Shown piece after piece: positions 11,427-17,762 of a stretch of 64,000 nt of DNA. Position numbers and translations under genes: made by a program. This DNA is from a virus (taxonomy: Duplodnaviria > Heunggongvirae > Uroviricota > Caudoviricetes): IMG/VR virus record IMGVR_UViG_3300045988_155182; one strand, 5' to 3'. Numbering within the stretch: the stretch's first letter is position 1; each line of letters opens with the position of its first letter. Under the pieces are notes generated by a model, which worked only from the letters and a program-made list of their open reading frames with translations, was not told the origin of the DNA and did not search any database.

Positions 11427-11501
11427 GATGGTGTAGCTCAGCGGTAGAGCAGTTGGCTGTTAACCAACTGGTCGGTGGTTCGAATCCACCCACCATCGCC
11501 A
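11427..11501 (+). tRNA. tRNA-Asn (anticodon GTT)
   Basis: Cloverleaf by eye: acceptor gatggtg/caccatc, D-arm gctc...gagc, anticodon loop ctGTTaa, T-arm ggtggTTCGAATccacc, encoded CCA. Confidence 0.85.
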
Positions 11502-11503
11502 AT

Positions 11504-11579
11504 GCCGGTTTAGCTCAGTTGGTAGAGCGCCTGCCTTGTAAGCAGGATGTCAGCGGTTCGAGTCCGTTAACCGGCACCA
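11504..11579 (+). tRNA. tRNA-Thr (anticodon TGT)
   Basis: Acceptor gccggtt/aaccggc, anticodon stem-loop cctgc-cttGTaa-gcagg (anticodon TGT), T-arm agcggTTCGAGTccgtt, encoded CCA. Confidence 0.85.
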
Positions 11580-11803
11580 ATACAACGATAAGATCATTAC
11601 GGTTAATCGTCGTTCATGTGCACAATGACTGGTCGAAAGGTAGTGATCTTACCGTTGTGGTGGATTCGCAGACTGATGCGATAGCTTTCTTGGATGTTAG
11701 GGAAATGCGGCCGCAAATCTTCCCTTTCGCGAGCGGTGATCGTCCGTAGTCCTAATTGGCTGCACCGTATGCCGGAGATTCAGTACCGGCCACCACAACG
11801 GCC

Positions 11804-11890
11804 GGAGAGTAGGGAGCATGGTGCTCAAGCGGTCTTGAAAACCGTCCCATTGCGCAAGCGATGATGGTTCGATTCCATTACTCTCCGCCA
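11804..11890 (+). tRNA. tRNA-Ser (anticodon TGA), type II with long variable arm
   Basis: Acceptor ggagagt/actctcc, anticodon loop cTTGAaa, long extra arm, T-loop GGTTCGATTCC, encoded CCA. Confidence 0.75.
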
Positions 11891-12045
11891 GACACAGCGT
11901 TGAGCGGTTTGGCCTTTTAATCAACTCGATTAAGACTCCGCTAACATAAACCAGACCGCTCAACGCTGTGATAGACAATTACGGCAGACGTTCTTAACCA
12001 TAGCTTGCTAACATCCTAGCAACACTTTTTTAAGCGCAAAATCCA

Positions 12046-12068
12046 AAGGGGCTTCGGCCCCTTTTTTG
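12046..12068 (+). terminator. Rho-independent terminator after the tRNA cluster
   Basis: aaaggggc ttcg gcccc followed by ttttttg. Confidence 0.6.
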
Positions 12069-12977
12069 TTAATGATTGCCTAGATATGATTTTAGTTCTT
12101 CTTTAATGATTAGTGAGTATTCTAAAATATCACTTAGTAAAAATTTTGCTCTGTTAAAATACCCACCAAAAGAACCTAAAATTTCAGATGGTCTTTCTAA
12201 GAGCATCACAATATCATCTTCTTGCACTTTAGTAATGTAACTTCTAACAGCTCTTTCTCCAATAACTCTTTTCTTACCGTTTATTTCAGATTCATCTAAA
12301 ACCTTATTTATAAATTTTTCTGTATCATTGAATCGTCCACTATTGTGTACTATTGTATGTCTTAGTAGTTCAATTAGCTTGATGTTAAAGCGATAGTTTT
12401 TGCCAATCTTGTTGTTTGTTTCTATCTCTTTGAAGCCAGGTATTTTATTTCTGAAAATTTTAGTTATTTTTTTCGATGGGTTACTTTTTGCTTTTAATAA
12501 TCTGTAATAAACTTCCCTTTTCCCAATTTCATCATCTTCAACCTTACCAAAATCACTTGAGGACCATAAATCATTTCGAACACATACAGTATAGACATAT
12601 ATTGCCTCAATATAGTCTTCCAGTAACTCATAGGCTTCAGTAATAACCCACTGATATTGTTTATTTTTCAAAGTATTACACAATCTTATCTTTTCTTCTA
12701 AATCAATGGCGCTGTTACCTATCTCTAATGTTGAACCTGTATATGGGTTTGAACATAAATGGCGAGCTAACGTTGTGCCACACTTAATCTTAATAGTTTC
12801 ATTAATATTAATAATAGTATCTGGATTCTGTGCATACTCCACTTCTTTAAGAAGACGTTTTATATTTTTCTTTGTTGTATCATTTATCTGATTTAAATAG
12901 TCAAAAAGTAAAGATATTTCTTCTCTAAATTCGTTGTATTTATTTTCAATCAAAGAATCAGACAACTTACCAATCAT
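12069..12977 (-). CDS. Hypothetical AT-rich protein; possible HEPN-type Abi-like protein
   Basis: 302 aa; the only sizeable minus-strand gene in this segment; strongly AT-rich codon usage; Rx4H motif (RHTIVH) near the C-terminal third; AT-rich upstream region at 12978-13150. Confidence 0.4.
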   Translation of the reverse strand: MIGKLSDSLIENKYNEFREEISLLFDYLNQINDTTKKNIKRLLKEVEYAQNPDTIININETIKIKCGTTLARHLCSNPYTGSTLEIGNSAIDLEEKIRLCNTLKNKQYQWVITEAYELLEDYIEAIYVYTVCVRNDLWSSSDFGKVEDDEIGKREVYYRLLKAKSNPSKKITKIFRNKIPGFKEIETNNKIGKNYRFNIKLIELLRHTIVHNSGRFNDTEKFINKVLDESEINGKKRVIGERAVRSYITKVQEDDIVMLLERPSEILGSFGGYFNRAKFLLSDILEYSLIIKEELKSYLGNH

Positions 12978-13150
12978 TAAAACCTCTATAAAATGTACAT
13001 TTCAAGGCAATCCTTACTGTAATCTATTGTCGTAATCACTTCAATTGTTTACTAGTCAATCAATAAGTTACTACATACTTATCAAAAAAATCTGTTTGTA
13101 GTATAGTCTGATATGTTCGAATCAATATTTATAAAGGTATTTGTTAAGTT

Positions 13151-13396
13151 ATGACGATCACTATCTACGGACGAGATAACTGCTCATACTGCAAACGTGC
13201 GGTCGAGCTGGCGAAGCAACTAAAGGGACATGGCTACGGTGATTATGAGTACATCGACATCACCACTGCCGGTATCGACAAGGAAAAACTAAGTGAAATT
13301 GTTGGTAAACCGGTAGAGACTATCCCCCAGGTGCTGATCGATGGCCAGCCGATTGGCGGATACACAGAACTGGCTGCATACGTCAGCACCCTCTGA
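13151..13396 (+). CDS. Glutaredoxin (Grx1/NrdC-like reductant for ribonucleotide reductase)
   Basis: CSYC active site (CxxC), KPVETIPQVLIDGQPIGGYTEL closely resembles E. coli glutaredoxin 1. Confidence 0.85.
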   Translation: MTITIYGRDNCSYCKRAVELAKQLKGHGYGDYEYIDITTAGIDKEKLSEIVGKPVETIPQVLIDGQPIGGYTELAAYVSTL

Positions 13397-13427: not shown

Positions 13428-13606
13428 CCACCAAACTCACTCCCATTTCCCTTAAAATTCAAAAAACAACGTCAAAATGATTCCATACCTACTATGTATG
13501 GAATCATTGCTGAAAATGAGTTACTTTTACTCTTGATCCTATAAGAATCTATGCCTAATATACTGTTTACTTATACAGTGCATCGGCGTAACTCGGTGAT
13601 TGTCAT

Positions 13607-14710
13607 ATGAAAAATAGCTTTGACAGAGCACGCGCTGCGGAGAACACCTCAAAAGAGGCGATAGAGTATCTCGAAAGAGCATCTCAAATGCAGGCCGTTA
13701 TGATCTCCCAGGTCAGCAATGACATGAGATTCTCGGACGCATTCATGTTATTCACTCGCTTATCTCTGCTGATAACCAGACGTCGGCCAGAGATCGCTGT
13801 TCATTGTATTTTGATACATGTTTTGCCGCACATTGCCGATGTAAAAGTAAGTGACATTAATAGGTTCATGGTGAACCAACTGGTCAACCCACTAATACTG
13901 GATGGCAAAATTGTTATGGGCCGCCGCGTTTTCTCTCTGATGAAGCAGTTCCTTAGCTGGTGCGCCTTCCAGGGGATGATAGACGTGTCACCGTTGAACG
14001 ATATGTCACTTAACAAAGTTGCCGGTGGCGCAAAGCCCACACCTCGCGAGCGGAAGCTGACCGACGCAGAGGTATGGGTGTTCTGGAATATATGGGACTA
14101 CTTCAATGTGTGTGCTGGTACAAAATGGGCGGCCAGGCTATGTCTTGTATCCGCAAGACGACCTGACGAAGTACTGCGGGCTAAAAAAAGTGAGTTCAAT
14201 CTTAAGCGTGGGGTTTGGAATCAAGGCAAGAGGAACAAATCTGCCCGTGAGCATTCTCTGCCTTTAAGCTCATTAATGCGCACTTGTATTGAAGAGTTGT
14301 TCGAATATGGTAAAGACAGCCAGTGGCTCGTGCCTTCGAATAAAAAAATCGGGAAAGACCTTCCTATGTCTAAAGTGGCAATAGCCCAGGCATTACGTCG
14401 TATTCTGGAACGACCAGAACTGATGGAGCTTGAGCCATTTACACCCCGAGATTTGCGCCGTACTGCGCGTAGTTACTTCCCAGCATTAGGCATAAGCCAG
14501 GAGGTATCACGTAAAATCATGAACCACAGTCTTGAGGGGATAGATCGGGTCTACGACCGGCACGATTATATGGACGAGATGCGAGACGCCTTAGAAAGTT
14601 TCTCGACGTACATCGCATCAATCGTAGAGCAACCGGATTTAGACGAAATTGACCACAAATTTAAGGGAGATCGTCTATCAACAGAGCTTATTCGTGTAAA
14701 TTTTTCATAG
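13607..14710 (+). CDS. Tyrosine recombinase (integrase or Cre-like resolvase family), divergent
   Basis: C-terminal catalytic region with RRPDEV..., TPRDLRRTARSYF (R in place of the usual H of HxxR) and NHSLEGIDRVYDRHDY (box II with the tyrosine); N-terminal third not recognisable. Confidence 0.6.
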   Translation: MKNSFDRARAAENTSKEAIEYLERASQMQAVMISQVSNDMRFSDAFMLFTRLSLLITRRRPEIAVHCILIHVLPHIADVKVSDINRFMVNQLVNPLILDGKIVMGRRVFSLMKQFLSWCAFQGMIDVSPLNDMSLNKVAGGAKPTPRERKLTDAEVWVFWNIWDYFNVCAGTKWAARLCLVSARRPDEVLRAKKSEFNLKRGVWNQGKRNKSAREHSLPLSSLMRTCIEELFEYGKDSQWLVPSNKKIGKDLPMSKVAIAQALRRILERPELMELEPFTPRDLRRTARSYFPALGISQEVSRKIMNHSLEGIDRVYDRHDYMDEMRDALESFSTYIASIVEQPDLDEIDHKFKGDRLSTELIRVNFS

Positions 14711-15091
14711 AGACTTTATGGCCTCAACAACCTTTTGTGATGCGCCTTTCTCTTTACCGAATCGCTCGTTATATGCAGCAAGAACCTGTTTTTCGTCCTC
14801 GTTAAGAGGAGCAGTGCCTTCTTTGTATAAAAATGCTGCGAGTTCGGGTTGGCGTTCTTCCAGCACCATCATCATAAGACGACTTGGCTCAATGCCCAGT
14901 GCCAGCGCCAGCGGACGAACCTTATCGATAGGCAAAGGAATTTTGCCGCTTTTAATTAAAGAAAGGTTGTTGGCGTTTTTATACCCAATTGTTTTGGCTA
15001 TCTGGGCCTGGCTCATAGGTGAGGATTCAATCAACCCTGCGATAAAAGCAGCGTAGCGACTTTCTATAAATTCAATCTTGTTATCAGACAT
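14705..15091 (-). CDS. HTH (XRE/Cro-CI-like) transcriptional regulator
   Basis: N-terminal helix-turn-helix MSQAQIAKTIGYKNANNLSLIKSG; convergent with and overlapping the 3' end of the recombinase gene. Confidence 0.6.
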   Translation of the reverse strand: MSDNKIEFIESRYAAFIAGLIESSPMSQAQIAKTIGYKNANNLSLIKSGKIPLPIDKVRPLALALGIEPSRLMMMVLEERQPELAAFLYKEGTAPLNEDEKQVLAAYNERFGKEKGASQKVVEAIKSL

Positions 15092-15653: not shown

Positions 15654-17762
15654 ATGTCTAAAAAACGTTCCATCAAAGAGGTTCAGGACTTCCGTGACAG
15701 TGTAAAACGAGTAGTCGCTCTCCTTTCAGGTAAAAACATCCCTGTTGCAGAACGAGGGGACGACGCTTATGTACGCTATAACGATGATGGAGAGCCAATT
15801 CTCGTAAACATCCCATCAATCCCGGATAACGCAACACCGGCATTGATGAATGCTGTGCGCGGATTTCTCGATCATGAGGTTGCTCACATTTTGTTTACCG
15901 ATATTCGTGTGTCCAACAAAATGAGAGAAAAAGGACGCGTTCCTTCCTGGTCGCTATGGAATGCCTTAGAAGACGTGTTCATCGAGCGAAAAATGGGTCA
16001 GGTCTTTAACGGAACAAGACGTAATCTGATGGCAACTCAGCGCCTTATAATCGAAAAAGTCTTTAAACCAAAGGCTTCAGAGGCTATTGCTTATTGTGGC
16101 AAAGATCAGCGCGCGCTTTTTCTAAACTTCTTTCTCTGTCCGGTTGTAAGAGCCTGGGATGGCCAAGCACCGTTCGTAGACTTCATGGATGAATATTGGC
16201 CTGTCATTGAGAAACCAATTTCATTATTAAAAGAACATGGTATCGATGTGGCCGTGCGTAACATGTCTTGCACCGAGGATTGTGTAAAGGTGGCTGCGAC
16301 CATAGCTAAGATCCTCAAAGACACTGAAAGTGAAAGCAAAGGTAAGGAGTCAGCTCCGGGAAAAACTTCCGATCCTTCAGACGCTGACCAGACGGATGCC
16401 TCTGGAGAAAACAATGAAGACAACGAAGATCATGAGACACCCTCATCGTTAGATAATCACAAATCTATTAAATCAGAGTCACATAGTAAGTACAAACATG
16501 ATAATAACGACAGTGATGACTCAGATAATCCTGAATCATCAGAAACAATATTCGATGATACAGAAAATGATAAAGCGGTATCAGATTCTGATGCTTCTGA
16601 TAACGCGGCGTCAGAATCATTAACCGCTGACCACGAAAAAAGAAAAACGACAGAAGACGGCTCTTCAGACATTCCAACTCCGTCAAAAATGAGTCTGGAA
16701 GAGGCTTTAGAGGAGTTGGATAGCATGGAAGATGAAGTCGGAGGCATGACAGAAGATGCGCTATCCGAAACGATTAAAAGCGAGTTAACAGAAAGCTCGA
16801 AAAGCGAATACAGGCCATACAATCGCTCATACGACTTCATCGGCTCGATTGATCAGGCAGAAGCCCATATCAAACGGCTTATTAAAACATTCTCCGATAT
16901 TGATTTAGGTGGATATCCAATCAGCCGTTATCGCATCGTTCCTGAAGGCAACCAACTCTTCGACAAATATATTGAAAAGCACCTTTCGTCAGGTGTTTCG
17001 TCGACGCTGGCAAAAGACCTGGAACGTGCAATAGCAAGCAGAAACAGAGTTCAGTTTATACCTGGCCAGCGTCGGGGGCGCATTCATGGTTCAAGTATCT
17101 ACAGATTAACAATGAATGATGATCGCGTGTTTCGTAAAAAAGAAGAATCTAAAGCCGTTAACGCCTGTGTTCAACAAGTGATTGATTTATCGGGTTCAAT
17201 GAGTGGCGAAACGATAAAACTAGCTCTTGCAAGTGCATATACCATCGCCGATGCACTTGATCGAATAAATGTTCCCAACATTATCACCGGCTTCACTACA
17301 TTTGGCAGTCATATGGCAGCAGGAGAACTTAAGGCTATCAAATATGAGTTCTCTCGCTTTGAATCTTTAATGCTACCTATCATCAAAAATTGGAATGAAA
17401 AAGCAAATTCTCGCGAAGTTCGCTCACGTATGGGGTGCGTAGGCTACACATTCCCACTTCTTAATAACGTGGATGGTGAAAGCATAGCCAGCCTTGCATC
17501 GTTATTTTCCGGTCGCTTGGAGGACAGGAAGATCATGCTTGTTCTGAGCGATGGCGCGCCGTGGGCTGTTGGGAGAGGTTTTGACGCCCATTTGCGGTCG
17601 GTTACGAAGCAAATTGAAACGCAGACTGACATTGATTTGATGGCAATTGGCATCATGACTGATGCACCGGAGAGATTTTACGCAAATCATGCCCTGGTAA
17701 CTAGTGTTGATAGTCTTGGTTCATCTGTAGTTACTGAACTATCTCGTATCATTTTGAAATAA
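15654..17762 (+). CDS. vWA-domain protein (CobT-like) with a long acidic S/D/E-rich disordered insert
   Basis: MIDAS-type DxSGS motif (VIDLSGSMSG) in the C-terminal half; ~150 aa low-complexity acidic region (DSDDSDNPESSE...); paired with the downstream AAA+ gene. Confidence 0.65.
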   Translation: MSKKRSIKEVQDFRDSVKRVVALLSGKNIPVAERGDDAYVRYNDDGEPILVNIPSIPDNATPALMNAVRGFLDHEVAHILFTDIRVSNKMREKGRVPSWSLWNALEDVFIERKMGQVFNGTRRNLMATQRLIIEKVFKPKASEAIAYCGKDQRALFLNFFLCPVVRAWDGQAPFVDFMDEYWPVIEKPISLLKEHGIDVAVRNMSCTEDCVKVAATIAKILKDTESESKGKESAPGKTSDPSDADQTDASGENNEDNEDHETPSSLDNHKSIKSESHSKYKHDNNDSDDSDNPESSETIFDDTENDKAVSDSDASDNAASESLTADHEKRKTTEDGSSDIPTPSKMSLEEALEELDSMEDEVGGMTEDALSETIKSELTESSKSEYRPYNRSYDFIGSIDQAEAHIKRLIKTFSDIDLGGYPISRYRIVPEGNQLFDKYIEKHLSSGVSSTLAKDLERAIASRNRVQFIPGQRRGRIHGSSIYRLTMNDDRVFRKKEESKAVNACVQQVIDLSGSMSGETIKLALASAYTIADALDRINVPNIITGFTTFGSHMAAGELKAIKYEFSRFESLMLPIIKNWNEKANSREVRSRMGCVGYTFPLLNNVDGESIASLASLFSGRLEDRKIMLVLSDGAPWAVGRGFDAHLRSVTKQIETQTDIDLMAIGIMTDAPERFYANHALVTSVDSLGSSVVTELSRIILK

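Follow-up and report, generated by a model that had tools for sequence, protein, structure and literature searches.

Organization of the locus

The window analyzed here, a stretch of 64,000 nucleotides, is a P1/P7/D6-like phage-plasmid of Escherichia coli. Across the region of interest it matches "Escherichia phage CMS-2020a" at 98.6% identity, and it has a backbone in common with phage Cyrano. Our focus is a gene at positions 12069 to 12977 on the minus strand, which begins with ATG and encodes a 302-amino-acid member of PHROG 35492, a probable solo HEPN RNase. The product is annotated as a "hypothetical protein" everywhere (e.g., WP_001755525.1), and we found no mention of that accession in the literature searched. 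An earlier reading of the sequence alone had identified this open reading frame and an RHTIVH motif of the Rx4H type within it, and both were borne out. The motif corresponds to residues 206 to 211 (R206-H207-T-I-V-H211), is encoded at 12345 to 12362 on the minus strand, and contains the predicted catalytic arginine and histidine. The codon of E117, an acidic residue that is invariant in the family alignment and lies in a long core helix (residues 93 to 133), is found at 12627 to 12629 on the same strand. The earlier account was also correct about base composition. The coding sequence has a GC content of about 30% against about 45% in its surroundings, and values over 12000 to 13200 are 0.28 to 0.32 compared with 0.41 to 0.51 at both sides. 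It had further described the gene as the only substantial one on the minus strand in its segment, yet it is not alone there: a 128-amino-acid HTH regulator is also encoded in that direction at 14705 to 15091.

The gene lies in a slot that runs from a tRNA cluster to grx. The cluster comprises tRNA-Asn-GTT (11427 to 11501), tRNA-Thr-TGT (11504 to 11579), and tRNA-Ser-TGA (11804 to 11890), all on the plus strand. These genes are convergent with the 12069 to 12977 gene, and their transcription would end at a shared hairpin. This GC-rich hairpin (12045 to 12064), together with its T-run (12045 to 12068, plus strand), abuts the stop codon of the gene and had been proposed as a terminator flanking it. 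The adjacency holds, but the element belongs to the backbone: Cyrano homology continues through 12068, and the hairpin sits inside a block that matches Cyrano at 97.8% identity and a second E. coli allele at 100%. Because the T-run and the terminator-like score are found on the plus strand only, we take the hairpin to be, in the first place, a terminator for transcription of the tRNAs. The sequence GGATTTTG follows the stem on the minus strand, and the hairpin may terminate transcription in both directions.

Upstream of the gene, where an AT-rich promoter region had been suggested, the outcome was mixed. A strict sigma-70 consensus scan of the minus strand found no site, while a relaxed scan returned one weak candidate at 13016 to 13044 (minus strand). 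This candidate matches the consensus at 8 of 12 positions, with a -35 element TTGAAG (13044 to 13039), 17 nt, and a -10 element TACAGT (13021 to 13016), 38 nt before the ATG. Both hexamers are kept in the 59%-identical allele (L065), where the -10 element is TACATT. A Shine-Dalgarno-like AGAGG (GAGG), read from the sequence, is located at 12983 to 12987 on the minus strand, 5 nt upstream of the start codon. A search for P1 C1 operators found no site near the gene, and Rfam and repeat scans of the noncoding DNA of the cassette returned nothing beyond the tRNAs.

Several other features of this neighborhood deserve mention in their own right. Directly after tRNA-Ser, at 11893 to 11970 on the plus strand, an inverted repeat of 20 bp (95% complementary) encloses a 38-nt loop that contains a small hairpin. 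Cyrano (97.8%) and plasmids with the second allele (99%) retain the repeat region, and the trailer from 11885 to 12075 folds at z = -6.5 relative to shuffled sequences; the element could signal processing of the tRNA transcript or be a small-RNA element within it. The tRNA cluster itself is variable. Its tRNA-Thr and tRNA-Ser genes are separated by a 224-bp spacer (11580 to 11803) that holds a perfect 12-nt inverted repeat (11652 to 11663 and 11790 to 11801); the corresponding spacer is 8 bp in Cyrano and longer in the allele-2 plasmids. In addition, relatives carry a tRNA-Tyr gene between the Asn and Thr genes that the window lacks. On the other side of the locus, a tyrosine recombinase gene occupies 13607 to 14710. 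About 100 bp upstream of it, at 13476 to 13508, is a near-perfect 16+16 palindrome (AATGATTCCATACCTA T TATGTATGGAATCATT) that is kept in all related phage-plasmids compared and is a candidate recombination site for that enzyme. Farther along, at 15654 to 17762 on the plus strand, is a gene for a 702-amino-acid protein with a long acidic Ser/Asp-rich linker, annotated as "cobaltochelatase CobT-related" in relatives. It is followed by an AAA ATPase gene, and both genes are conserved parts of the phage-plasmid backbone.

An exchangeable cassette of the phage-plasmid

Homology between the window and Cyrano extends from the tRNAs through 12068, breaks at 12069 (the stop codon of the gene), and resumes at 13151 (the start codon of grx). 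At this site Cyrano carries a different segment of 389 bp with a 116-amino-acid open reading frame on the plus strand. When the window is compared with L065, the second E. coli allele, the flanks are 99 to 100% identical up to 12068, and identity falls to 68% over the coding sequence and 63 to 71% over the upstream region. Because identity breaks in both comparisons, we treat positions 12069 to 13150 (minus strand) as one exchangeable unit of 1,082 bp, made up of the gene and its 173-bp upstream region, and the hairpin as backbone. There is no second open reading frame in the cassette.

The gene is the fastest diverging at its locus. Its product is 59% identical between the two E. coli alleles, compared with 94 to 100% for the ligase, grx, the integrase, and two small open reading frames. 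In a more distant comparison, the gene product is 39% identical and the flanking proteins are 62 to 84% identical. In Klebsiella-type and Citrobacter phage-plasmids, this slot is filled by homologs of 39 to 43% identity that point in the same direction. The alleles at this single locus form a series at 100%, about 57%, 43%, and about 39% identity. The gene is also dispensable, since Cyrano, P1, P7, and D6 are without it. These observations support the view that the gene is horizontally exchanged accessory cargo of a P1/D6-like phage-plasmid. The sequence-only reading had arrived at acquired cargo from location, composition, and orientation; the bounded cassette, its replacement in Cyrano, and a divergence far above that of its flanks bear this out.

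Distribution follows the element. Among 5,426 complete E. coli genomes, the gene was present in 30, always on plasmids of 106 to 120 kb. It was also found in 58 plasmids of PLSDB from Escherichia, Klebsiella, Citrobacter, and one Pseudomonas, all of which are nonmobilizable and nearly all of which are 105 to 120 kb in size. As a separate observation, the slot between grx and the integrase is also a hot spot for cargo in relatives (L006-L008, L061, L068, and L069). It contains a YafO-family toxin with a 201-amino-acid partner, colicin M with a microcin-immunity-like gene, PhoH, or gp49. In Citrobacter, an ars operon adjoins the homolog.

A widespread family with three invariant residues

By direct library scan, the whole protein matches PHROG 35492, for which no function is assigned. 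A word-indexed search recovered only 8 relatives, and a second such search with a deep profile added nothing. With a HMMER profile search, we obtained 453 representatives (clusters at 50% identity) at E ≤ 1e-3, including 142 at E ≤ 1e-30, and nearly all of these representatives are 280 to 320 amino acids long. Genome and viral scans placed members in Gamma-, Beta-, Delta-, and Epsilonproteobacteria, Bacteroidota, Spirochaetota, Nitrospirota, and others. Eleven family loci lie in viral contigs, and most family members are found in bacterial chromosomes.

To assess conservation, we aligned 129 diverse members, whose mean column identity is 24%. Only three columns, E117, R206, and H211, are invariant in all 129 sequences. 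Position 207 is histidine in 125 members and asparagine in the remaining 4, V210 is retained in 127 and G214 in 126, and the nearly invariant positions are N105, Q107, W110, Y127, W138, E186, N189, H207, V210, and G214. The glutamate sits in the conserved block N105-x-Q107-x-x-W110...E117. Conservation peaks at residues 93 to 133 and 195 to 215, while residues 1 to 92 and 216 to 302 are the most variable, in the family at large as well as in the alleles of the phage-plasmids. The motif by itself is short, and the caution that it could occur by chance was justified for the motif alone: when the 302-amino-acid protein was shuffled, 19% of the shuffles contained Rx4H and 3% contained R[NDH]x3H. 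Since chance suffices to produce Rx4H, conservation across the family is the only basis on which the motif can be considered significant.

Two further resemblances were noted and set aside. Residues ~93 to 170 (~12468 to 12701, minus strand) show a weak but recurrent likeness to the flavin-dependent halogenase CmlS, with the helix pattern NKQYQW..EAYExFEDFL..YA....D..FW. Matches of this type include PDB entry 3i3l (E = 0.009), NCBIfam model NF033113 in 7 members, and a tryptophan halogenase PHROG in one. They are below threshold, and we treat this likeness of helix 93 to 133 and the residues following it as chance. Similarly, a weak match to TrmL in 7 members (best E = 2e-5) was reduced by phmmer to a short, unsupported local match of the form G.P.SIL..L and was rejected.

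Genomic neighborhoods of the family

No neighboring gene is conserved across 50 family loci. Because of this, and because the cassette has no second open reading frame, we regard the gene as acting alone and not as half of a HepT-MntA-type pair. In a raw tally of genes within two positions, the defense genes were PDC-S15 (FRG), PDC-S09, PDC-S57, type I and type IIG restriction-modification genes, PD-Lambda-1, PD-T7-5, MADS, Avs4, ToxN, and MNT-type nucleotidyltransferases; mobile-element and prophage genes, such as integrases, Bro-N, and P2 tail genes, appeared within the same distance in that raw tally. The neighborhoods of the family thus suggest defense islands and mobile elements.

The absence of a partner also bears on whether the protein is an addiction toxin that stabilizes the phage-plasmid through postsegregational killing, with an unrecognized antitoxin such as an RNA derived from the 173 bp upstream of the gene. 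In favor of this, the prophage is maintained as a low-copy plasmid, and related phage-plasmids carry a YafO toxin and colicin M with immunity at the locus, in the grx-integrase slot. Moreover, HEPN proteins are frequent among the toxins of toxin-antitoxin systems, and RNA regulation is reported for a phage AbiF (PMC12373285). Yet neither an MNT gene nor any other neighbor is conserved at the 50 loci, and many family members are chromosomal. The upstream region, for its part, is as diverged as the coding sequence and is without an open reading frame, repeat array, or known RNA family. On balance, an addiction role appears quite unlikely to us.

We hold a similarly low opinion of the idea that the RNase would serve the phage itself, in its lytic cycle or in counterdefense; it would be expressed upon induction and would shut off the host or cleave host or rival RNA. 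That the gene is phage borne, has a fixed slot in the phage-plasmids of Escherichia, Klebsiella, and Citrobacter, and is oriented opposite to early-region genes (ligase and grx) would agree with such a role. However, the element can do without the gene, as Cyrano, P1, P7, and D6 illustrate, and most family members are chromosomal with defense or mobile-element neighbors. Furthermore, the gene has traits typical of moron and defense genes expressed in lysogens: a candidate promoter of its own, an opposite orientation, and extreme divergence between alleles.

Resemblance to the HEPN fold

HEPN domains are defined as four-helix bundles in which an insert separates helix 2 from helix 3, an Rx4-6H motif ends helix 3, and the residue right after the arginine is N, D, or H (PMC3710099, Anantharaman et al. 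2013). They often have a conserved acidic residue in helix 2, typically within Ex3[K/R] (PMC3710099). Several of these features are found in our family. Both residues of the Rx4H motif, R206 and H211, are present in 129 of 129 members, and all 129 follow the R-[N/D/H]-x3-H rule at position 207. An AlphaFold2 model built from a deep alignment (pLDDT 94.1; pTM 0.90) comprises, in order, a helix at 2 to 50, a beta-hairpin at 69 to 91, a helix at 93 to 133 that contains E117, a 60-residue insert of short helices (134 to 194), a helix at 195 to 212 with R206...H211 at its C-terminal end, a loop at 213 to 218 that contains G214, further helices and a hairpin, and a C-terminal helix at 276 to 300. 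The motif is therefore placed by the model at the end of a helix that is followed by a loop. E117 lies in the helix that precedes the insert and may correspond to the acidic residue of HEPN helix 2, although its context is ExxED and not Ex3[K/R]. Taken together, the motif, the polar residue at 207, the position of the motif, and the predicted order of helix 2, insert, and helix 3 all fit HEPN, and the predicted fold may resemble that of HEPN domains.

Comparisons at the sequence level were less supportive. The earlier suggestion of a HEPN-like motif stands as far as invariance and predicted position are concerned, but it gained no significant match to a HEPN profile. Scans of Pfam, NCBIfam, and PADLOC with the query, the 129 members, and the family consensus gave no match above threshold. 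In PADLOC-DB 2.0, no family matched the query, and members had only scattered matches at E > 6e-4. Subthreshold matches of members were to DUF3644, HEPN_Apea, EcoEI_R_C, Csx1/Csm6, and Cas13, none of which was matched by the consensus. DUF3644 was the only Pfam family to align at the motif (residues 182 to 223); the query did so at E = 2.9, against a cutoff of 27.6 bits, and so did 3 other members. When we used hhalign, the E. coli 042 protein EC042_2821 placed RHxIVH on RDQAVH (E = 0.13) at a probability below 1%, and against a DUF3644 profile of 34 sequences the probability was 0.9% and the alignment moved off the motif. We also made the comparison with Tha-1, a 301-amino-acid HEPN RNase of staphylococcal phage 80alpha that is triggered by a minor tail protein (PMC11087260). 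Here the Rx4H motif fell on the catalytic Rx4H (E = 0.36) at a probability of 0.2%. Neither the DUF3644 nor the Tha-1 comparison is significant, and the strongest columns of a profile would tend to find any R....H in hhalign. A search of PDB sequences with either family profile returned no HEPN protein. Accordingly, a profile-level sequence link to HEPN families was not established in these comparisons. Nevertheless, the same searches perform poorly on a known case: Tha-1, a validated HEPN RNase, reached only E ~0.03 against DUF4145 and HepT-like models. Because Tha-1 is also subthreshold in Pfam, we consider the failed profile link to be weak negative evidence.

Structural searches leave some room for a different reading. 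Foldseek against PDB and BFVD matched generic helical proteins only and no HEPN entry, and the HEPN likeness could be generic four-helix-bundle similarity in a protein that is not an RNase. If so, the conserved E, R, and H would serve nucleotide or ligand binding (as in noncatalytic HEPN domains), DNA binding, or other chemistry. We consider this reading unlikely, and we judge it probable that the product is a HEPN-fold RNase.

A possible role in abortive infection

The explanation that we prefer is that the 12069 to 12977 product is a stand-alone HEPN-fold RNase from a previously unnamed family, carried by phage-plasmids as exchangeable cargo for abortive infection or exclusion; as a whole, we rate this account somewhat better than even. 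We infer the RNase activity, oligomeric state, trigger, substrate, and defense phenotype of the protein by analogy, and they could be combined as follows. Transcribed from its own weak sigma-70 promoter, the protein would be made in the lysogen and held inactive. A component of a superinfecting phage would then activate it through the variable regions (1 to 92 and 216 to 302), which may form sensor or regulatory surfaces. The putative catalytic core, consisting of the helix at 93 to 133 with E117 and the helix at 195 to 212 with R206, H207, and H211, is probably paired across a dimer. It would cut tRNA, mRNA, or rRNA without metal and leave 2',3'-cyclic phosphate ends. Translation would stop, and the infection would be aborted.

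The proximity of tRNA genes invites a more specific version of this scheme. Colicin E5, for example, targets the tRNAs for Tyr, His, Asn, and Asp, and the tRNAs of the phage-plasmid might be spares for counterdefense. HepS ("HEPN Solo") is an anticodon nuclease of the Salmonella prophage Gifsy-1 that is triggered by a tail-tip protein (PMC13043305). Its targets, the tRNAs for Thr, Ile, and Ser, overlap with the tRNA set of the window (11427 to 11890) (PMC13043305). The cassette could thus encode an anticodon nuclease like HepS, with the phage tRNAs for Asn, Thr, and Ser (and Tyr in relatives) replacing host tRNAs that have been cleaved. Under such an arrangement, the element would keep translating and rival phages could not. 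The slot beside the tRNA cluster has been kept in Escherichia, Klebsiella-type, and Citrobacter elements despite identities as low as 39%, and the targets of HepS (PMC13043305) would likewise be in keeping with the coupling. On the other hand, Cyrano, P1, P7, and D6 have the cluster but lack the gene, most family members elsewhere have no tRNA neighbor, and the anticodon loop of the phage tRNA-Thr(UGU), CUUGUAA, equals that of host thrU, with differences in the stems only. Because the cluster is backbone that exists elsewhere without the gene, and because the tRNA-Thr loop is identical to that of the host, we regard a coupling between nuclease and tRNAs as possible but unsupported, and as very improbable.

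If the preferred reading of a solo HEPN RNase for abortive infection or exclusion is confirmed, the single-gene HEPN defense RNases would gain a widespread family that comprises 453 or more clusters at 50% identity. The family spans many bacterial phyla, prophages, and phage-plasmids, and it has no Pfam, NCBIfam, or PADLOC model. Confirmation would also make the tRNA-grx slot a hot spot for defense cargo in P1/D6-like phage-plasmids of clinical Enterobacteriaceae, with relevance to phage therapy and to competition among mobile elements. The allelic series at this one locus, moreover, represents a natural system in which trigger specificity could be mapped.

Relation to known HEPN systems

Kinship with AbiD and AbiF had been proposed on the basis of the motif, and this was not upheld. 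AbiD, AbiD1, and AbiF proteins (Abi_2, PF07751) are alike in being single-gene, about 300 to 350 amino acids long, mobile-element borne, and equipped with a HEPN motif. They are unlike our family in that Abi_2 matched neither the query at E ≤ 10 nor any of the 129 members at E ≤ 1, and no Abi match was found in PADLOC; the protein is not a member of that group. A scan against the Pfam HEPN models likewise gave nothing above threshold. DUF3644/EC042_2821 proteins combine wHTH and restriction-endonuclease domains and belong to restriction-modification operons, and our family has no such fusion or context. HepT-MntA (type VII toxin-antitoxin) pairs an MNT antitoxin with a DUF86 toxin of about 130 amino acids, whereas the protein described here has 302 amino acids and no HepT-like match. 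Within the HEPN superfamily it would be distinguished by an extra 50-residue N-terminal helix, the beta-hairpin at 69 to 91, and a C-terminal subdomain at 216 to 275.

Parallels are offered by prophage-borne solo HEPN defenses that have been experimentally established, namely, HepS (PMC13043305) and Tha (PMC11087260). HepS, whose sequence is absent from the LT2 Gifsy-1 record, is set apart by description: it is shorter than 250 amino acids with its motif at 100 to 105, compared with 302 amino acids and a motif at 206 to 211 here. The HepS family is characterized by tetramers and anticodon nuclease activity, with cleavage of Thr, Ile, and Ser tRNAs (PMC13043305). Tha-1 is nearly the same size as our protein, but its motif is near the C terminus (265 to 270), whereas that of the phage-plasmid protein is followed by 90 further residues. 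Tha also has a partner inhibitor, Ith, of which no counterpart was seen for the 12069 to 12977 gene, and the phylum of its host is different. Our findings extend a known theme, that of solo HEPN defense, and add no new principle to it. Alongside HepS and Tha, the 12069 to 12977 gene most likely represents a hitherto unnamed solo HEPN RNase family, one that looks HEPN-type and would most likely block rival phages.
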